Source of the DNA: Candidatus Aenigmatarchaeota archaeon
Lineage (GTDB): Archaea; Aenigmatarchaeota; Aenigmatarchaeia; QMZP01; QMZT01
Assembly (NCBI GenBank): GCA_041489155.1
Contig: JBGPQP010000006.1
Location: 1,338-65,337 of the forward strand
DNA: 64,000 nucleotides
Direction: 5' to 3'
Shown in pieces: positions 4,649 to 49,650 of this stretch. The translations under genes were made by a program, and so were the position numbers. Below the pieces are notes generated by a model. It did no database searches. It was not told the DNA's origin and saw only the letters and a program-made list of their open reading frames with translations. How positions within the stretch are numbered: the first letter of the stretch is position 1; each line of letters starts with the position of its first letter.

Positions 4649-4796
4649 GCTGGGATGGCGGAATGGTAACGCGCTAGCCTGGAATAAGCCTTTTGACCAA
4701 AAGGCTTAAGCGAAAACCAGCAGCTCACGCTTGCATTTGGTTTGCCAGACAGCTAGTCTCCTTACGGGGTCCTGGGTTCGAATCCCAGTCCCAGCG
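4649..4796 (+). tRNA. tRNA-Ser (GGA) with a 66-nt canonical 37/38 intron (4685-4750)
   Basis: Acceptor GCUGGGA/UCCCAGC, D arm with GG, anticodon stem CUAGC/GCUAG, loop CUGGAA|A, long variable arm CUCC-UUAC-GGGG, T arm CUGGG-UUCGAAU-CCCAG, discriminator G. The intron forms a strict BHB: CUGG:CCAG central helix, bulges AA|U and AC|A, distal helix AAGCC:GGUUU. No encoded CCA. Confidence 0.9.
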
Positions 4797-4830
4797 TTTC
4801 AAGACCAGAAGCATAAAATTACGGATAATT

Positions 4831-5520
4831 ATGAAAACAATTAACGCAGAAAAAATCCCGCTGCCAGAACCTTTCCATTCCCTGACAGGCGGCGTAGAGA
4901 GAGGAACGATTACGAATTTCTACGGCCCGCCGGGCGTGGGAAAAACGAATATCTGCATCCTCGCCGCACTGGAATGCATAAAGAAGGGCGGCAAGGTCAT
5001 TTACATCGACAGCGAGGGCGGGCTGTCGCCGGAACGCATAATGCAGATAAGCGGCGACCAGAGCGTCCTAGAGCGCATAATCCTGATCGAGCCCAAAACC
5101 TTTGAGGAGCAGGGCGTGGCTATAAAGAACCTGGAGGGCAGCGAGTTCGACATGCTGGTCCTCGACTCCGCCGTCGCTTTGTACAGGCTGAAATGCGCCG
5201 ATCCCGGCAGCGAGACGCTCGAGGCGAACAAGGATCTGTCCGTGCAGCTTTCCGTCCTCTCCAACATCGCCAGGAAAAGGAACATTCCCGTCATCATCAC
5301 AGCGCACGTCTTCAAGAACTGGGACACGGGCGAGAACCAGATGATAGGCGGCGACGCCATCAGATACTGGTCCAAATCAATCATCTTCGTCGAGCACACT
5401 GGCAGGATGAGCGAGCGCAAGGCAACAATCGTAAAACACCGCTCGATTCCGGAGGGCAAATTCGTTAAATTCGAGCTCGTTCAGAACGGCATACGCCCGT
5501 CGGGCTTCAGGATATTCTGA
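4831..5520 (+). CDS. radB: RadB (RadA/Rad51 paralog, single RecA-like domain)
   Basis: 229 aa from ATG 4831; the track start at 4693 is a TTG inside the tRNA. Walker A GPPGVGKT, Walker B MLVLDS, RadB-like size and tail. Confidence 0.85.
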   Translation: MKTINAEKIPLPEPFHSLTGGVERGTITNFYGPPGVGKTNICILAALECIKKGGKVIYIDSEGGLSPERIMQISGDQSVLERIILIEPKTFEEQGVAIKNLEGSEFDMLVLDSAVALYRLKCADPGSETLEANKDLSVQLSVLSNIARKRNIPVIITAHVFKNWDTGENQMIGGDAIRYWSKSIIFVEHTGRMSERKATIVKHRSIPEGKFVKFELVQNGIRPSGFRIF

Positions 5521-6375: not shown

Positions 6376-8526
6376 TTATTTTTCCTTAATGTGGGAAGGT
6401 TTCGATGCCGCCTGCTGAGCCTTTTCTTTTCCCGCTGGGGCTTTCTCTTCCTTTGTCGCAGCTGTCTTTGCACCTTCTTTTGTCGCGTCACCCTTCCTGT
6501 TCACGAAGCCGCATTTGACGCAGAGCTTCCATGGACGGCGCTTGAACTGCTTCACCTGGATGATGTTGAGGCCGCAAGTGGGGCATTTCTCGTCCGTCGC
6601 GGATACGTAGCCTTTCTGCGGCAGCGGGAAGCTCTGCCTGCACTTCGGGTAATTGGAGCAGCCGACGAAATGCTTCTTGGTAATGTGCGAGCGGATTATG
6701 CGCAGCTCGCCCTTGCATGCGGGGCATACGCCGACAAAATGAGCCATCTCCTGGAATTCCTTCACGCCTTCCTTGAGTTCGGAGCCTATGTGCATCTCGT
6801 GCTCCTTGAACTTCTGGAGCGTTTTCTCCAGCTCTTTCCTCGCGTTCCCGACGATTTCATCCCTCTTCCTTTTACCCTCCTGGATGAGCTCGATCTCATG
6901 GTCAAAAGTCTTGGTCAGCTCTTCGGAGATTATCTCAGGGCAGTGCTTCTCGAGCGCTTCGATTACCGCAGAGCCAAGCGCAGTCACCCTTATCGACTTG
7001 TCCTTTATGTATTCCCTGTCGTAAAGCGTCTGGAGTATTTGCGCGCGCGTCGCTTTCGTGCCCAGGTTCTTGTCCTCCATGGTCTTGAGGATCGAGGCCT
7101 GAGAGTAGCGGTCGGGCGGCGTTGTCTCCTTCTCGTTGAGCTTTACATCAGGCTTGTCGACGTTCTGGCCTTGCGTCATCTCGGGCAGAAGCTGCTCCTT
7201 GAACTTCGCGTACCTGCCGTAGAATTCCATCCACTCGGGTTTTATGGTTGTTGCGCCGAAGGCCTTGAATTTCTCGCCATTGACGTCTATCGCCACGGTC
7301 ACCCTTTCGCGTAGCGCGGGATCGGCGAACGTCGAGAGGAATCTCCTGACTATGATGTCGTAGATGTTCTGCTGGTACTTGCCGAGCTTCGCAGGCTTAA
7401 GGCCGGTCGGGAAAACGCTTGGGTGGGCAGGGTCGTCCTTGTCTCCCTCGATCGGGATGAACTTGCCCTTCTTGATCAGCCTGCCGCAGAGCGCGGCGTA
7501 TTCGCCCTGCTCCGCCAGCTTTTCAATTATTGCCCTGAGGCCCAGCTTCTGGGGCAGCTTCTGGCTAGACGTCCTCGGATAGGAAATAAGCGCATGCTCG
7601 TAGAGATTCTGGGCTATGTCCAGCGTCATCTTCGGGGAATAGCCGAAGTTGTTGAACGCCTCGCGCTGCAGCGTGGTGAGGTCGAAAGGCGTCGGCGGGA
7701 GCTGCTTTACAATCTTCTTTTCGATCTCGTGAACGGCTGCTTTCTTGCCGGTGCATCTCTTTAGGATGGTCTCGGCCTGCCCCTTTTCCCAGAATTTATC
7801 GGCTTCATGGAGCGCGGTTATCTTCTTGCCGTTCACCAGGCCATGGAGCTCGAGCGTCCAGAACAGCTCTGGCACGAATCTCTCGATTTCCCGTTCGCGA
7901 TCCTCCAGGATCTTCAGCGTCGGGCCCTGAACTCTTCCGATGGACAATGTCCAGTAGCCATTCGCCTTTTCCAGCGCCAGCGTAAGGGCGCGGGAAAGGT
8001 TGATGCCCCACAGGAAATCAAGCATGTGCCTTGTCAGGCCTGCCTCTATCTGGGGGAAATCGAGATGAGGCGTTGCGTTGGCATAAGATTCAAGTATGTC
8101 CTTGTCCGTAAGCGTGGAGAATTTCATGCGCCTGCCGTCTTTCGCGTTGCATATGAAGCGAATGATGTTGTAGGCGATGGTCGAGCCTTCGATGTCGTAG
8201 TCGCATGCAGAAACGAAATCAGTCGCGCCCTTCGCGAGTTTGGCTATGTTCGCGTAGTATTTCTGGGCCCATAAATTGTCCTTGTCGTCGAATGTCGGCC
8301 GCCATTCGACGTCGAAGACGGGATACGTCCATTTCGCCTTCTTTCCTTTCTCGTCCAGAACGAAAAGATGTCCGACAGCAGGGACGACAACTATGTCCTT
8401 GCCGCCATGCCTCAGCCTGAAGTATATCACGCTCTTGCCACTCTTTTCTACCTTGCCTTCGGCAAGCGCGTAAGCAATTCTTTCCGCTGCGCTGGGCTTT
8501 TCCGCTATGACGAGCGTATAGGACAT
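6376..8526 (-). CDS. topA: Type IA DNA topoisomerase with C-terminal zinc ribbons and a Lys-rich tail
   Basis: N-terminal TOPRIM (LVIAEKPS...DYDIEGS), central topo IA core, and CPACKG...CSNYPKC...CPTCG...CVKCG zinc ribbons. Confidence 0.9.
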   Translation of the reverse strand: MSYTLVIAEKPSAAERIAYALAEGKVEKSGKSVIYFRLRHGGKDIVVVPAVGHLFVLDEKGKKAKWTYPVFDVEWRPTFDDKDNLWAQKYYANIAKLAKGATDFVSACDYDIEGSTIAYNIIRFICNAKDGRRMKFSTLTDKDILESYANATPHLDFPQIEAGLTRHMLDFLWGINLSRALTLALEKANGYWTLSIGRVQGPTLKILEDREREIERFVPELFWTLELHGLVNGKKITALHEADKFWEKGQAETILKRCTGKKAAVHEIEKKIVKQLPPTPFDLTTLQREAFNNFGYSPKMTLDIAQNLYEHALISYPRTSSQKLPQKLGLRAIIEKLAEQGEYAALCGRLIKKGKFIPIEGDKDDPAHPSVFPTGLKPAKLGKYQQNIYDIIVRRFLSTFADPALRERVTVAIDVNGEKFKAFGATTIKPEWMEFYGRYAKFKEQLLPEMTQGQNVDKPDVKLNEKETTPPDRYSQASILKTMEDKNLGTKATRAQILQTLYDREYIKDKSIRVTALGSAVIEALEKHCPEIISEELTKTFDHEIELIQEGKRKRDEIVGNARKELEKTLQKFKEHEMHIGSELKEGVKEFQEMAHFVGVCPACKGELRIIRSHITKKHFVGCSNYPKCRQSFPLPQKGYVSATDEKCPTCGLNIIQVKQFKRRPWKLCVKCGFVNRKGDATKEGAKTAATKEEKAPAGKEKAQQAASKPSHIKEK

Positions 8527-8596
8527 AATACTATTAAAACCAGCTCATGTTTAAAAGTTTTCGCTGCTTTTTCACTGCTCAGGGCCTAAAATCACG

Positions 8597-8851
8597 TTAA
8601 ATCTTGAAGACAAGGTCCCCTTCTCTTACCCTGTCGTTCACCTTCATGCCGACCGCTTCGCCCTTCTTGGCCTCACTCACGTTCTTGTGCTCGACCTGCA
8701 TCGACTCTATCCTCTGCTGCACGTTCGTCGACGTCCCTTCGATCGAGATCTCGTCGCCGACCTTTATGGTGTGCTCGACGTCAATGACGGCGACGCCTAT
8801 CTTCGTGAAGTAATGCCTTACCTTGCCTACGAGCTTCTTTTCCCCTTCCAT
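8597..8851 (-). CDS. Small stand-alone beta-barrel protein resembling EF-Tu domain 2
   Basis: 84 aa. GKVRHYFTKIGVAVIDVEH.IKVGDEI.I.G......I.SMQ.......A..G..VG..V.....GD.V pattern, typical of translation-factor domain II. Confidence 0.6.
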   Translation of the reverse strand: MEGEKKLVGKVRHYFTKIGVAVIDVEHTIKVGDEISIEGTSTNVQQRIESMQVEHKNVSEAKKGEAVGMKVNDRVREGDLVFKI

Positions 8852-8890
8852 GCTTTATTCCTTGGAAAAGGGGCTTAAAAATAAATATGA

Positions 8891-9049
8891 TGCGGGAGCA
8901 GGGATTCGAACCCTGGAACACATGCCTCGCGCTTCGCTAAGCGAATGCTTCGCAAAGGCGCCCTAAGTGAGCAGGTCTTGAGCATCGACATCATCTTGAA
9001 TCAGAGTTCAAGACCATTCTACCGCCTTTGACCACTTGGCTACCCCCGC
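8891..9049 (-). tRNA. Class II tRNA, probably tRNA-Leu (CAA), 159 nt with two insertions (about 8983-9017 in the anticodon arm, about 8922-8962 in the variable arm)
   Basis: Acceptor GCGGGGG/CUCCCGC, discriminator A, Leu-type D arm GCC-AAGUGGUCAAA-GGC, intact T arm CAGGG-UUCGAAU-CCCUG, loop CUCAAGA followed by CCUGC, variable arm U-CAC-UUAG...GUG-UUC. Exact splice sites were not resolved; no strict BHB was found by hand. Confidence 0.6.
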
Positions 9050-9075
9050 ATTATAGAAATTGCAGAAACAGCTTA

Positions 9076-9600
9076 TTAACCTATCGCCCTCAGCTGCGCC
9101 CTGAGCTTCTCCAGCTGGCCGTACACGTTTTTCATGTGGTCCTCGACCTCGCCCCTTTCTTCCGGTTCGAGGTCCTCTTCCTCGTAATCCTCCGGCCTTT
9201 CCATTGCCTGGGGCTTCATGAAGAACGCATCGAGGTTCGATGTTAGCTCGTTGAGTTCGTCGAGGGTTTTTTGCGCGATTTCTATGCCATTTGCCACTTC
9301 CCTCTGCATGTCCCTCAGAACGTCAAGCGCATCCCTGAGGTTGAGGATGTAAGAGCGCAGATCGCGTATATTTTTAACGATGGCCCTGTACTTGTCGACT
9401 TTTATGAAAAGCGGCGGAGATTGCGTCGAAGGCGTTGGTCTTGGCGCGGGCGCTCTGGGAGCAGGAGCCCTCTTTATCTCTGGCAGTTGTACAGAGGGAG
9501 AGTAGTTTTCCTCTGCCGGTTGCTGTTCAGAATCAGCTTCTTTCTCTTCCTCTGGCTGCAGCTCCTTTATCTCCTTTGCCTTGCTTTTAAAGAGCTTCAT
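9076..9600 (-). CDS. Hypothetical protein: acidic/Pro-rich disordered N-half plus coiled-coil C-half
   Basis: Start moved to ATG 9600 (MKLFKSKAK); the track ORF ran into the tRNA-Gly gene. PAPRAPAPRP linker, then heptad-like LFIKVDKYRAIVKNIRDLRSYILNLRDALDVL... Confidence 0.6.
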   Translation of the reverse strand: MKLFKSKAKEIKELQPEEEKEADSEQQPAEENYSPSVQLPEIKRAPAPRAPAPRPTPSTQSPPLFIKVDKYRAIVKNIRDLRSYILNLRDALDVLRDMQREVANGIEIAQKTLDELNELTSNLDAFFMKPQAMERPEDYEEEDLEPEERGEVEDHMKNVYGQLEKLRAQLRAIG

Positions 9601-9653
9601 AGTAATTATTTCCCGCGCGTCAATAAATATATTAATTTCGCCACTGTTCCGCA

Positions 9654-9793
9654 TGCGTCGGCCGGGAGCTTCAGACGGAAACAGACGAAGTCTGCTTCAT
9701 GCGCCTTTTGAACCCGGGCTACAGGCTTGGCAAGCCTGTGTCCTATTGCCCATTCGCTCTCGCGAAGCGAGCACCAGGCTAGACTACCGACGC
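9654..9793 (-). tRNA. tRNA-Gly (GCC) with two non-canonical introns: D-loop (9746-9773, 28 nt) and T-loop 59/60 (9668-9706, 39 nt)
   Basis: Acceptor GCGUCGG/CCGACGC, D stem GUCU/GGAC, anticodon arm CAGGC-UUGCCAA-GCCUG, T stem CCGGG/CCCGG. Removing both insertions gives a 73-nt cloverleaf with T-loop UUCAAAU. Both insertions can be drawn with BHB motifs. Confidence 0.85.
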
Positions 9794-9877
9794 ACAATTT
9801 CGATGGACGACCTGAAATATAGAGTCAAATCGTCAATCGCTGTTTGGTAATAATTTTTGCTTTGCTGGATTTAAAGC

Positions 9878-10174
9878 TTAGCCGAACAGGGCCCCGAAAC
9901 CTTCGGCAGCGGAGTCTTCCTGCTCCTTTATCTTCTTCAGCACCTCGTCCTTCTCATGGCCGGCGACTTCCTTCCCCTTGTCGCCGATAAGATGCTTCGC
10001 CTTCTCTATCGCCTCGTGGGAGCCGTCAATCTCAAGGTAATAGCCGTCCTTGTTGAAACCGAGCGCTCGGGCTTCCCTGAAATTTATCGTATGCCTCGAC
10101 ACAGTATCGTCTGCGTAAAGCAGGTTCTTGACTCCTGAATAATGCTCCATGGTTATGAAGAAAACCGTCTTCAT
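9878..10174 (-). CDS. 98-aa protein with a ribosomal-stalk-like C-terminal tail (..EQEDSAAEGFGALFG)
   Basis: ATG 10174 preceded by GGAGGU at a 6-nt spacing; the longer track start is unsupported. The beta-rich N-domain is unlike aP1. The last 7 residues, GFGALFG, resemble the conserved aP1 tail GLGALFG. Confidence 0.7.
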   Translation of the reverse strand: MKTVFFITMEHYSGVKNLLYADDTVSRHTINFREARALGFNKDGYYLEIDGSHEAIEKAKHLIGDKGKEVAGHEKDEVLKKIKEQEDSAAEGFGALFG

Positions 10175-10261
10175 GCTCTTACCTCCTGAACATAACATTC
10201 GTTTTATTATCTGAAATATTTCGCGCAAGAATTAATATTTATTCCCTGCCGGTTTTTCAGG

Positions 10262-21503: not shown

Positions 21504-21599
21504 AGCGGGGTGGAGCAGCCTGGAGTGCTCGCTGGGCCCATAACCCAGAGGTCGATGGTTCAAAACCTTAATGAAAAGGTGAAAATCCATCCCCCGCTA
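21504..21599 (+). tRNA. Initiator tRNA-Met (CAU) with a 21-nt T-loop (59/60) intron at 21565-21585
   Basis: A1:U72, anticodon stem CUGGG/CCCAG (three G:C), loop CCCAUAA (C33). T stem GAUGG/CCAUC. The insertion forms a strict BHB: UUCA:UGAA, bulges AA|A and AA|U, distal helix CCUU:AAGG. The spliced T-loop is UUCAAAU. Confidence 0.9.
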
Positions 21600-27494: not shown

Positions 27495-28283
27495 TTAAAA
27501 CAGGAAAACCCTTTCCGTCTTTATCTTGTCTCCGGCTTGTTTTCCAAGTGCTATTATAGAGCCGCCTTTGTCGAATATCCCAACTGTTCCATCGGTGTCT
27601 GTTTTCTCTCTCCTGAAAATGAAATCCGGAAAAACAGGGCTGCCGTTCCTTATTTTTACAATCGCTTCATCGTTCACGATAACTTTTTTGAGGCCAACCC
27701 TTTCGAGGATCTCTTCAAGCGGCACGACGTCTTTTTCGCTGAGCTTTGAAAGAGTAACGGCTTCATCAATAACGAAGGGCCCAATTTTGGTCCTGCGAAG
27801 CTCTGTCATGTGGGCGCCGCAGCCAAGTGCCTGGCCGATGTCATGGACCAGCTTGCGGATGTACGTGCCCGCCTCGCAGCTCACAGAGAAAGCGACTTCC
27901 CTTCTCTGCATTCTAAGTATTCTAAGCCAGTTGACTCTCCGCTTTCTCTCGACCCTCGCGACTCGTGATTTTACAGGAGGCTTCTGGATGATTTCGCCGG
28001 TGAATTTCTTGAAGGCGTTTTCAACCGCTTCGCGTTCGGCATCTGCATGTATAAGCATCATGCCTTCGTATTCCTTGTCCATACCCATGAGGACAGGCAT
28101 CGCCTTCCTCGCTTCTTCCAGGGCGATGAGCATGAGGCCTGTGACGTTGGGGTCGAGCGTTCCCGCATGGCCGCCGCGCTCTGCGCCTAGGATTTTGCAT
28201 GTTTTCTCCACGACGTCGAAACTCGTCATCCCGCTGGGCTTGTCGACAAGAACGACGCCTTTACATAGAGTTGGATTTTTCAT
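27495..28283 (-). CDS. truB: tRNA pseudouridine synthase, TruB/Cbf5 family, with a PUA domain
   Basis: VLVDKPSGMTSFDVV and the catalytic GHAGTLDPNVTG; C-terminal PUA-like segment. Short for a Cbf5. Confidence 0.88.
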   Translation of the reverse strand: MKNPTLCKGVVLVDKPSGMTSFDVVEKTCKILGAERGGHAGTLDPNVTGLMLIALEEARKAMPVLMGMDKEYEGMMLIHADAEREAVENAFKKFTGEIIQKPPVKSRVARVERKRRVNWLRILRMQRREVAFSVSCEAGTYIRKLVHDIGQALGCGAHMTELRRTKIGPFVIDEAVTLSKLSEKDVVPLEEILERVGLKKVIVNDEAIVKIRNGSPVFPDFIFRREKTDTDGTVGIFDKGGSIIALGKQAGDKIKTERVFLF

Positions 28284-48632: not shown

Positions 48633-48772
48633 GGGGCCGTGGTGTAGCTAAGCCCTTTCACGGCAGCTTTCGCTTGCACGAAAGCGCTTGCGGAAAACGT
48701 GAATGGCTCTGCAATGGTCTAGCATTCAAGCTTCGGGAGCTTGCGACCTGAGTTCGAATCTCAGCGGCCCCA
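48633..48772 (+). tRNA. tRNA-Pro (CGG) with a 65-nt D-loop intron (48650-48714)
   Basis: Acceptor GGGGCCG/CGGCCCC, D stem GUGU/GCAU, anticodon arm CAAGC-UUCGGGA-GCUUG, T arm CUGAG-UUCGAAU-CUCAG, discriminator A. BHB-like fold: GUAG:CUGC central helix, bulges CU|A and AA|U, distal helix AGCC:GGCU. The spliced D-loop is AGCUUGGUCUA. Confidence 0.85.
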
Positions 48773-48816
48773 TCGGATATTCAATAATTTATATTTTGAG
48801 GACGACAATAGTTATT

Positions 48817-49650
48817 ATGCTCGGTTTCGTGTTTCTTGCGATAGGCATAGTCGGTTTTGGCCTTGCCGCGTACTGGGACCTTCGCTATACCGAGTTCCCT
48901 GACTGGCTTCCTTATTCGATAATCATTCTGACCATCGCGGCGAAGGCTGTGTTTTCATATGCCGCGGATAACTGGCTGATACTAGGCACATCGGTGTTTT
49001 ACGGATGCGTGTTCCTTGGCCTAGGTCTGCTTCTCTATTTCGCGAAACAGTGGGGCGACGGCGACGCGTGGCTGCTTGGAGCGCTGGGATTCGTGCTGCC
49101 CGACCAGCTCGAATTCGGCGTTTCGACGAATCTCCCGTTCCCAATGACCCTGCTTTTCAATTTCCTTCTGGTCTCACTAGTATACCTAATCGCCTATTCG
49201 CTGGTGCTCGGACTAAGAAACAGAACTGTCAACAAGAGATACGCAGAACATCTCTACAAAGAAAGATACAAGCTGATGGGCATGACTGCGTTTTTCTTTG
49301 CCTTTTGCTGGGGCTTCGCGTTTTTCATGCATTACATGGGCTTTAACGCTATGAATGTTATGCAAATGGCCATGCTCCCCTTCCTTCTTACGTTCATCCT
49401 CCTGTTCTCATACTATGCAAAAATAGTCGAAAAAAACCTGTTCAAGAGAAAAGTAAAGACATCTGAACTGAGAGAGGGTGACGTCATCCTGGATGGAAGA
49501 TGGAGGGGCCTGACCAAGAAGGAAATAGCTGAAATCAGGAGAAAAGGCAAATACGCCTGGATAAAGGAGGGGGTGAGATTCGCGCCTGTTTTCATAATAA
49601 CCATGCTGATAAGCATTTTTTACGGGGATTTAATATTAATATTGGTTTAA
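48817..49650 (+). CDS. A24-family prepilin/preflagellin peptidase (PibD/FlaK/EppA-like) with a C-terminal soluble extension
   Basis: Start moved to ATG 48817; the track ORF begins inside the tRNA. Polytopic, with the first catalytic Asp in AAYWDLRYTEFPD and the second in the GDGDAWLLGALG (GxGD) motif. Confidence 0.8.
   Translation: MLGFVFLAIGIVGFGLAAYWDLRYTEFPDWLPYSIIILTIAAKAVFSYAADNWLILGTSVFYGCVFLGLGLLLYFAKQWGDGDAWLLGALGFVLPDQLEFGVSTNLPFPMTLLFNFLLVSLVYLIAYSLVLGLRNRTVNKRYAEHLYKERYKLMGMTAFFFAFCWGFAFFMHYMGFNAMNVMQMAMLPFLLTFILLFSYYAKIVEKNLFKRKVKTSELREGDVILDGRWRGLTKKEIAEIRRKGKYAWIKEGVRFAPVFIITMLISIFYGDLILILV

Follow-up and report, generated by a model that had tools for sequence, protein, structure and literature searches.

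Interrupted tRNA Genes in Archaea

Archaeal tRNA genes with several introns and with the non-canonical HBh' and hBH forms of bulge-helix-bulge (BHB) motifs are described from Thermoproteales, ARMAN, and other DPANN lineages (PMC4033280, PMC5829648, PMC4090602), and multi-intron tRNA genes are already a well-known kind of gene (PMC4033280, PMC4090602). The locus treated here is a 159-nucleotide (nt) element on the minus strand of a 64,000-nt stretch of contig JBGPQP010000006.1 from a Candidatus Aenigmatarchaeota archaeon (assembly GCA_041489155.1); this whole stretch is called the window in the following. The probability is roughly 85% that a tiny sediment archaeon of the Aenigmarchaeota (DPANN) has here an intact tRNA-Leu(CAA) gene which is split by two introns of the BHB type that are spliced by proteins. 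As in the multi-intron genes from Thermoproteales, ARMAN, and DPANN, introns lie outside position 37/38, BHB motifs are relaxed, one gene can have up to three introns, introns come and go rapidly between relatives, and standard tRNA finders miss the genes. It differs from them in its lineage, the Aenigmarchaeota, and in that the orthologous gene carries introns at seven sites. An intron site in the variable-arm loop of a class II tRNA was not found described in the literature covered, which did not include the published position tables.

The first of the two introns (intron 1) invites comparison with a further group of systems. The tRNA-Trp intron contains a box C/D small RNA (sRNA) that guides the formation of Cm34 and Um39 (PMC4090602, PMC7994747), a case which a review calls a unique example (PMC4090602). 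Like this intron of euryarchaeal pre-tRNA-Trp, intron 1 of the tRNA-Leu(CAA) gene combines C/D-type boxes with an element antisense to the same tRNA that points to C34 by the fifth-nucleotide rule, and in both cases the precursor would have to alternate between two folds, one for guiding and one with the BHB (PMC4090602, PMC7994747). The tRNA-Trp intron, however, is about 65–105 nt long, occupies the canonical position 37/38, and has four boxes (C, D', C', and D) with two guides, whereas intron 1 of tRNA-Leu(CAA) spans 29–40 nt in the relatives analysed (71 nt in one of them, L025), lies at 30/31, and presents a D'/C'-type kink-loop (K-loop) only, with one guide. In Pyrococcus, box C/D sRNAs acting in trans are predicted to methylate position 34 of the tRNAs Leu(CAA) and Leu(UAA) and of the Met and Trp tRNAs (PMC7994747, PMC7668247). 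The target, C34 of tRNA-Leu(CAA), and the targeting logic are the same there, but these sRNAs are encoded by separate full-size genes, whereas here the antisense element is part of the precursor of its own target. In yeast and human tRNA-Leu(CAA) the same nucleotide is modified by Trm4, for which the intron is required (PMC4090602). This resemblance in tRNA species and nucleotide is functional and not one of homology, as Trm4 is a protein-only enzyme with other chemistry, works with a canonical intron, and uses no guide RNA.

Structure of the Gene and Its Two Introns

The gene and its parts are listed below with window coordinates; the t-index counts nucleotides of the gene in the direction of transcription.

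8891..9049, minus strand (9049→8891): tRNA-Leu(CAA) gene, 159 nt, two introns, spliced product 84 nt, CCA not encoded (Rfam, ARAGORN, RNAfold)
9019..9049, minus strand: exon 1, t-index 1–31, with the 5' strand of the acceptor stem, the D arm, G26, and nt 27–30 (GUAG) (BHB rule and orthologues L028 and L029)
8984..9018, minus strand: intron 1, t-index 32–66, 35 nt, splitting the 5' strand of the anticodon stem at Sprinzl position 30/31, AAUGGUCUUGAACUCUGAUUCAAGAUGAUGUCGAU (BHB rule, relatives)
8963..8983, minus strand: exon 2, t-index 67–87, with G31, the anticodon loop CUCAAGA, the stem strand CCUGC, and the 5' part of the variable arm UCACUUAG (ARAGORN, RNAfold)
8978-8980, minus strand: anticodon CAA, within exon 2
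8923..8962, minus strand: intron 2, t-index 88–127, 40 nt, in the variable-arm loop at UUAG^U, GGCGCCUUUGCGAAGCAUUCGCUUAGCGAAGCGCGAGGCA (relatives skipping 8923-8962, BHB rule)
8891..8922, minus strand: exon 3, t-index 128–159, with U-GUG-UUC of the variable arm, the T arm, the 3' strand of the acceptor stem, and A73 (Rfam, ARAGORN)

Read from 9049 to 8891 the layout is thus GCGGGGGUAGCCAAGUGGUCAAAGGCGGUAG-[35 nt]-GCUCAAGACCUGCUCACUUAG-[40 nt]-UGUGUUCCAGGGUUCGAAUCCCUGCUCCCGCA. The covariance model of the Rfam tRNA family RF00005 matched the element from end to end with 35.9 bits (gathering score 29), leaving 102 nt between D arm and T arm unaligned. ARAGORN with default settings detected no tRNA in the whole window. 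When introns were allowed it returned a different exon structure, a forced tRNA-Asp(GUC) with a 70-nt intron, which was judged to be wrong; the spliced 84-mer, by contrast, was called tRNA-Leu(CAA) with a full cloverleaf including a 3-base-pair (bp) variable stem and a 5-nt loop. RNAfold gave the same cloverleaf as the minimum-energy fold of the 84-mer. The spliced sequence has the 7-bp acceptor stem, the 3-bp D stem with a long D loop, the T arm GGUUCGAAUCC, A73, the long variable arm, and the leucine anticodon of a class II tRNA-Leu; its anticodon stem GUAGG/CCUGC is perfect and its variable arm reads U-CAC-UUAGU-GUG-UUC. Much of this had been seen in a first annotation of the locus made from the letters alone (the sequence-only reading), which gave the exact coordinates, recognized a class II tRNA-Leu with insertions in anticodon stem and variable arm, noted the intact acceptor stem, Leu-type D arm, T arm, and A73, and counted about 75 extra nucleotides, which turn out to be 35 plus 40.

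The same reading had, on the other hand, been able to draw no BHB that the insertions fit. Both do fit the motif once each junction is moved by one nucleotide. The rule applied here asks for a 4-nt helix strand followed by NN|N both where the 5' exon ends and where the intron ends, with the two 4-nt strands pairing to a central helix that has a 3-nt bulge on either strand. The strict hBHBh' intron in the window's initiator tRNA gene (21504-21599) served for its calibration, and all four tRNA genes of the window conform to it. Among 33 tabulated introns of the family (those of L025, L026, L027, and L030 included) the central helix is paired at 4/4 positions in 25, at 3/4 in six, and at 2/4 in one, against a background of 2.3% of random site pairs with 4/4 pairing. 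The elements of the two motifs are as follows.

9021..9024, minus strand: exon strand CGGU (nt 25–28) of the BHB-1 central helix, pairing with GUCG at 8986-8989
8986..8989, minus strand: intron strand GUCG of the BHB-1 central helix, followed by the bulge AU|G (BHB rule, covariation)
8965..8968, minus strand: exon strand ACUU of the BHB-2 central helix, followed by the bulge AG|G, pairing with GAGG at 8925-8928 at 3/4 positions
8925..8928, minus strand: intron strand GAGG of the BHB-2 central helix, followed by the bulge CA|U; GAGG with NA|U occurs in every variable-loop intron found
8929..8961, minus strand: inner hairpin h' of intron 2, closed by GCGC:GCGC, with the GCGAAGC repeats in its apical part (RNAfold)

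In intron 1 the helix CGGU:GUCG pairs at 4/4 positions between the bulges AG|A and AU|G, and the inner helix is provided by the intron hairpin AUGGUCUUGAA/UUCAAGAUGAU; the intron alone folds at −9.3 kcal/mol (z = −2.4, RNAfold). The duplication of UCAAGA (t-index 51–56 and 69–74), which the sequence-only reading had listed as an oddity, is real, and its intronic copy is predicted to be a decoy strand forming this inner helix. Another oddity on its list, a stack of GCGAAGC repeats in the second insertion, is likewise present, with two copies that RNAfold places in the arms of the intron-2 hairpin. The central helix of intron 2, (A)CUU:GAG(G), is paired at 3/4 positions with an A.G mismatch at the outer one; it is complete (4/4) in the relatives L012 (CCUU) and L008 (UCUU). 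Both introns carry relaxed HBh'-type motifs, and such motifs need a splicing endonuclease of broad specificity; enzymes of this kind are on record for DPANN lineages (PMC5829648).

We infer that cleavage and ligation take place in the following way. Transcription would begin from the A/T box about 27 nt upstream of the gene and stop at the T tract behind it. A splicing endonuclease of broad specificity would cut after the second bulge nucleotide on each strand, which is after t-index 31, 66, 87, and 127, an RtcB-type enzyme would ligate the exons to the 84-nt tRNA, and CCA would be added post-transcriptionally. The two flanking signals were read from the sequence; an A/T box occurs at a matching distance upstream of the tRNA in L023, L026, and L027.

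9073..9079, minus strand: TTAATAA, likely an archaeal TATA box, 24–30 nt upstream of the tRNA 5' end
8877..8885, minus strand: T-rich tract TTTATTTTT directly 3' of the gene, a likely transcription stop

Introns in the Orthologous Genes

Relatives of the gene were collected with a relaxed pattern composed of the D arm, a gap, and CUCAAGA. After chance matches in bacterial genes had been discarded, seven true relatives from metagenomes (L006, L007, L008, L012, L013, L014, and L016) and two from genomes (L017, a Candidatus Aenigmatarchaeota metagenome-assembled genome, and L022) were left. A strict pattern with both insertions and GGTTCGAATCC gave no match in the genome collection, being too strict, and the relaxed pattern gave none in viral contigs. 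Just upstream of the tRNA gene lies the gene of a protein of 192 amino acids (aa) whose homologues are named Candidatus Aenigmarchaeota, and the same order of this protein and tRNA-Leu(CAA) is found in L012, L013, L016, and L022. Nine more contigs (L023–L031) were retrieved by means of the 192-aa protein, and tRNA-Leu(CAA) follows it there too. The tRNA gene thus occupies the same syntenic place in relatives in which the protein is 37–74% identical, and it is the single syntenic tRNA-Leu(CAA) in a dozen of them. The protein family itself appears to be specific to Aenigmarchaeota and Micrarchaeota.

Both junctions can be read directly from orthologues which do not contain the respective intron. 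In L028 and L029 intron 1 is missing, and the sequence runs GGCG-AUAGG-CUCAAGA. L026 and L027 carry no intron but intron 1, and at the place of intron 2 they read UCACUUAGUGUGUUC, the predicted spliced sequence; in total intron 2 is absent with exactly this sequence in L023, L025, L026, L027, L029, and L030. In contigs of relatives from three public runs (X25, X26, and X6) the missing stretch is exactly 8923-8962, and its position is unambiguous. As these contigs retain intron 1 and diverge at 9034/9035, the site of a D-loop intron at 15/16 in L023, L025, L028, and L029, they are alleles of relatives and not spliced RNA; the contigs diverging at 9034/9035 come from runs X5, X25, and X26. Since the orthologues share both junctions, the novel intron geometry which the sequence-only reading had considered is not supported.

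Across the orthologous tRNA-Leu(CAA) genes introns are found at seven sites: 8/9, 15/16, about 20b/21, 30/31, 37/38, the variable loop, and 59/60. Their combinations differ even between close relatives, with up to three introns per gene (L006, L007, L008, L012, L013, L016, and L022–L031). The 15/16 intron, absent from the gene in the window, measures 64–93 nt in L023, L025, L028, and L029 and has a central helix GCCA:UGGC/UGGU and an inner helix of 9–11 bp, AAGC(C)UUUU.../...AAAAGGCUU. The variable-loop site is occupied by introns of 11, 27, and 31 nt in L012/L016, L008, L024, and L028, all ending in GAGG-NA|U. The intron-1 site is filled in 14 relatives. The core of intron 1 is identical at 33 of 35 positions in L027 and L030, where the neighbouring protein is 58% and 45% identical, and it is invariant among relatives with a neighbouring protein 45–74% identical, while intron 2 is variable or absent. 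Two X4 variant contigs, reconstructed from their listed differences, retain those parts of intron 2 that lie close to the BHB and have insertions and deletions in its apical hairpin; bulge nucleotides vary freely in them as well (G, A, or U at the first nucleotide of intron 2, which is the third of its bulge, and A65U in intron 1).

In a gap-free alignment of 46 columns comprising 13 distinct intron-1 cores the central helix of BHB-1 is paired in 100% of the sequences, with one pair occurring as AU, GC, CG, and GU, and sliding the partner columns by 1–3 positions lowers pairing from 83% to 21–43%. The intron strand, GUCG, GCCG, GCUG, or GGUG, tracks the exon strand, CGGU, CGAU, or CGCC. The second closing pair of intron 2 is C-G in the window and U-A in L024, L028, and L008. 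In the exons the anticodon stem shows compensatory forms, GUAGG/CCUGC, AUAGG/CCUAU, and CCAGA/UCUGG. As judged from these alignments the exons are invariant or compensated, and the gene is under selection and not in decay.

Signs of local duplication were observed in some relatives. In the pair L013/L017, intron 1 of L013 ends with GCUCGGAGCUGAA, which resembles the start of the next exon, GCUCAAGA; the 71-nt intron 1 of L025 repeats GGUUUGA/GGUUUCA and AUGUCGA; and L006 has GCAGGGGGUAAUU just upstream of the true 5' end GCAGGGGUAAC. Such duplications may bear on the origin of the introns.

Intron 1 as a Candidate Methylation Guide

An 8-bp helix that sequesters the anticodon loop, GGUCUUGA (t-index 35–42) with UCAAGACC (t-index 69–76), had been pointed out by the sequence-only reading. 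The complementarity is real, the duplex of intron 1 with the anticodon region reaches −13.0 kcal/mol, none of 500 shuffles does as well, and its register is conserved in the relatives. The guide:target helix is also the minimum-energy fold of a local 57-nt segment. Together with two short boxes it forms the following arrangement.

9005..9016, minus strand: antisense element UGGUCUUGAACU, 12 nt directly upstream of CUGA; 10/12 positions pair with nt 30–40, and G41 (position 5) pairs with C34
9001..9004, minus strand: box D'-like CUGA; CUGA or UUGA in all 13 distinct sequences, in which the flanks vary
8993..9000, minus strand: intronic decoy UUCAAGAU, pairing with the antisense element in the intron hairpin (h' of BHB-1) (RNAfold)
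8989..8994, minus strand: box C'-like AUGAUG, overlapping the first nucleotide of the BHB helix strand; RUGAU-N in all relatives

An internal D'/C' K-loop of box C/D RNAs has CUGA, 3–9 nt, and then UGAUGA, and this layout is found here. Likewise found is an antisense element of about 10–12 nt which ends next to box D/D' and has its target opposite the fifth position. In box C/D guides the established fifth-nucleotide rule designates the target for 2'-O-methylation. Counted upstream from the box, the fifth nucleotide is paired with C34, the wobble nucleotide, and this is the one that the rule would designate. All 15 loci parsed (13 distinct sequences) keep the register in which position 5 faces C34, and 7–10 of the 12 positions pair in it. 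The duplex covers nt 30–40 in the clade of the window and nt 31–38 in the clade of L012, and in window-like sequences, L012, L013, and L025 at most 1% of shuffles are as good. Compensatory changes occur at position 2 with nt 31 (CG/UA) and at position 10 with nt 39 (GC/AU). The D' box is UUGA instead of CUGA in L008, L022, and L026, and AUGAUG is replaced by AUGAUA, AUGAUU, or GUGAUG in some relatives. The spacing between both boxes is 3–8 nt in 12 of the 13 distinct sequences and 25 nt in L025, and for the Watson-Crick pair expected between D' nucleotide 1 and C' nucleotide 6 nine sequences have CG, two have UA, and one has UG, while in one the pair is broken.

On these grounds we give even odds to intron 1 being a cis-acting half-size box C/D guide for Cm34 in tRNA-Leu(CAA). 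Slightly short of even would be the full form of this proposal, in which an intron of 29–40 nt at 30/31 constitutes a minimal guide with a single K-loop, Cm34 is formed before splicing, and the decoy toggles the precursor between a fold for methylation and a fold for splicing. In the reading given even odds, L7Ae would bind the K-loop before splicing, Nop5-fibrillarin would methylate C34 on the guide:target helix, and refolding of the antisense element onto the decoy UUCAAGAU would then expose BHB-1. The guide:target and BHB folds are mutually exclusive (−59.6 versus −54.9 kcal/mol when constrained, −62.6 kcal/mol unconstrained). A regulated precursor, one of the possibilities named by the sequence-only reading, is in part compatible with this model of two conformers. 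The locus is not a canonical box C/D sRNA, as it has neither a terminal C/D pair nor a bipartite layout, but it may work like one, and one might speculate that tethering guide and target in one molecule offsets the single box pair.

Two structural ideas were discarded. The guide:target helix could have been the missing outer helix of BHB-1, but it would form a pseudoknot with the central helix and, by reasoning only, no BHB-like stacking. Intron 2 could have formed a second kink-turn (K-turn), but its one G.A mismatch stands alone, with no G.A pairs in tandem. A K-turn stem is possible in the intron of L025 (GGUUUC/GAAACU after CUGA); it is not the minimum-energy fold and is not counted as support.

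Alternative Explanations

Several observations weigh against a gene with two functional BHB introns. In place of the strict hBHBh' form both introns have the h' helix with outer helices no longer than 2 bp in intron 1 and 1 bp in intron 2, so that both motifs are relaxed, and helix 2 contains the A.G mismatch. The BHB folds lie 4–12 kcal/mol above the unconstrained minimum (RNAfold). The covariation is based on few independent events among related sequences. In RNA runs only two metatranscriptome contigs matched (X25 and X26), both unspliced, with intron 1 and a D-loop intron retained, and from a relative without intron 2 in its DNA. No gene of the splicing endonuclease EndA was among 41 of the 56 candidate open reading frames (ORFs) of the window, namely 40 scanned against Pfam and the topoisomerase gene; the Pfam scan of the 40 found housekeeping genes only and none of EndA, RtcB, L7Ae, Nop5, and fibrillarin. 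The failure of default tRNA finders, which miss or mis-call the locus, the relaxed motifs, and the lack of a spliced product in the RNA runs could also be read as marks of a decaying or non-functional tRNA gene whose insertions cannot be removed, as the sequence-only reading had suggested among other options. This is very improbable. The gene is the only tRNA-Leu(CAA) of the window, where an Rfam search found no second one, and it is the conserved syntenic copy of a dozen relatives; its exons are invariant or compensated, the intron strands covary with the exon strands in a way that keeps the BHB, all four tRNA genes of the window are interrupted likewise, and heavy disruption of tRNA genes is known in DPANN lineages (PMC5829648). 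Even less credit is due to the exon model of the sequence-only reading itself, with an intron at 31/32, an A31.C39 mismatch, and a 41-nt insertion UUAG[41]GUG in a geometry other than BHB. ARAGORN does accept the 83-nt spliced form of this model as tRNA-Leu(CAA). At its junctions, however, GGUA would face UCGA and CUUA would face AGGC, strands that form no central helix, orthologues without intron 1 carry G31 and not A31, orthologues without intron 2 have the 15-nt arm UCACUUAGUGUGUUC and not the 14-nt arm of that model, and the deletion in the DNA of the relatives is exactly 40 nt without positional ambiguity. The mature sequence it implies, GGUAGACUCAAG, is contradicted by the orthologue junctions. 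The mismatch arose because the first junction had been placed one nucleotide too far 3'; with the intron at 30/31 nt 31 is G, and the second insertion becomes UUAG[40]UGUGUUC. The reading as an intact gene with two BHB introns of 35 and 40 nt is therefore preferred.

The guide function of intron 1 faces objections of its own. The complementarity is weaker in L007, L008, and L022, L013 has an unpaired U.C at the D'1:C'6 position, and lineages without intron 1 exist (L028, L029, and L031). Neither the intron nor the adjacent exons contain a terminal pair of box C (RUGAUGA) and box D (CUGA), so there is one K-loop only, and single-motif box C/D complexes are active but not site-specific in vitro (PMC1635284). 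A pattern search of the window found no full box C/D sRNA, Rfam at permissive E-values in 8870-9070 returned the tRNA and two chance matches but no box C/D family, and the box C/D proteins L7Ae, Nop5, and fibrillarin were not seen in the 40 of 56 ORFs scanned. Moreover, AUGAU is also a strand of the BHB inner helix, pairing with the 5' end of the intron, which could alone explain its conservation. It seems possible, though on balance doubtful, that the antisense element and the CUGA/AUGAUG boxes are structural only and shape or time splicing, for instance through folding assisted by L7Ae, a longer helix of anticodon and intron, or shielding of the anticodon loop until splicing, with no guided methylation. 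The pairing role of AUGAU, the single K-loop, the weak complementarity in three relatives, and the minimum-energy fold of L025, which uses the helix of antisense element and decoy and not the K-turn stem, would all suit such a role. It does not explain why CUGA/UUGA, which the splicing fold places in its apical loop, is invariant amid varying flanks, nor why the spacing that puts position 5 on C34 is equal in three diverged clades; the covariation of D'1 with C'6 fits a K-loop, and the guide:target helix is no part of the BHB. Another complementarity, the 8-bp match between the D arm, CAAAGGCG (t-index 20–27), and intron 2, CGCCUUUG (t-index 90–97; window 8953-8960 versus 9023-9030), had been noted in the sequence-only reading as a link. 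It is present, but its significance did not stand: 25% of shuffled introns do as well for the window and 6–37% across sequences, and a functional match was rejected on this basis. That it keeps the precursor unfolded or orders the splicing events, for instance, is improbable, although 7–8 nt complementary to the D arm, CGCCUUU(G) or UGCCUUU, are found again and again at the variable-loop site, in the introns of the window, both X4 variants, L024, and L028, and in L028 with another offset. The introns that L008 and L012 have at this site do not contain the complement, it would compete with helix 1 and the BHB-2 inner helix, and the motif may have been inherited within a closely related sub-clade. 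Chance or shared ancestry is probably behind its recurrence.

Other tRNA Genes and the Neighbourhood

Introns interrupt each of the four tRNA genes in the window (64 kb), none of which is found by ARAGORN with default settings. The three others are listed here.

4649-4796, plus strand: tRNA-Ser(GGA) with a 66-nt intron at the canonical position 37/38 (BHB rule)
21504-21599, plus strand: initiator tRNA-Met(CAU), T loop split at 59/60 by a 21-nt intron of strict hBHBh' form, helix UUCA:UGAA
48633-48772, plus strand: complete tRNA-Pro(CGG) gene with a 65-nt D-loop intron after U17 (intron 48650-48714), strict BHB

The initiator intron has the bulges AA|A and AA|U, an outer helix of 5 bp, and an inner helix of 4 bp. 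In tRNA-Pro(CGG) the central helix is GUAG:CUGC, the bulges are CU|A and AA|U, and the inner helix is AGCC.../...GGCU; Rfam recognized only model positions 10–63 of this gene with 28.9 bits, just below the threshold, and the spliced 75-mer was accepted by ARAGORN. Two long ORFs overlap tRNA-Ser (4693-5520, plus strand) and tRNA-Pro (48703-49650, plus strand) on the same strand; as the intron-containing tRNAs had not been recognized, these ORF calls are probably spurious.

The tRNA-Leu(CAA) gene belongs to a neighbourhood at 6376-10228 (minus strand) that is conserved in L023 and L026–L030. It consists of a 98/116-aa protein, a protein of 160–190 aa without Pfam domains, and tRNA-Leu(CAA), and continues with an 84-aa protein resembling domain 2 of EF-Tu and a topoisomerase (Toprim/Topoisom_bac/Zn ribbon). 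Elsewhere in the window (27495-28283, minus strand) a Cbf5-like protein with TruB_N and TruB_C_2 domains and a weak PUA match is encoded. Cbf5 is the catalytic subunit of H/ACA guide ribonucleoproteins, which use L7Ae, and this TruB-PUA protein hints at a K-turn-binding ribonucleoprotein machinery.

Significance

The tRNA genes of the window escape ARAGORN and are recovered by the BHB rule together with a comparison of orthologues. Incomplete tRNA sets have been reported for DPANN genomes (PMC5829648), and these can probably be completed in the same way. The orthologous tRNA-Leu(CAA) genes with their seven intron sites are a compact natural series for the study of intron gain and loss.

If intron 1 is a guide, there would be a selective reason for its near-invariance while the neighbouring introns come and go, and self-guided modification of tRNA would extend beyond tRNA-Trp. 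tRNA-Leu(CAA) would then be the second known tRNA species with a methylation guide of its own, and its intron the first guide of half size, as well as the first at an intron site other than the canonical one, in DPANN archaea. It would also be a natural minimal box C/D substrate, which bears on the question whether one K-turn motif suffices when guide and target are tethered.

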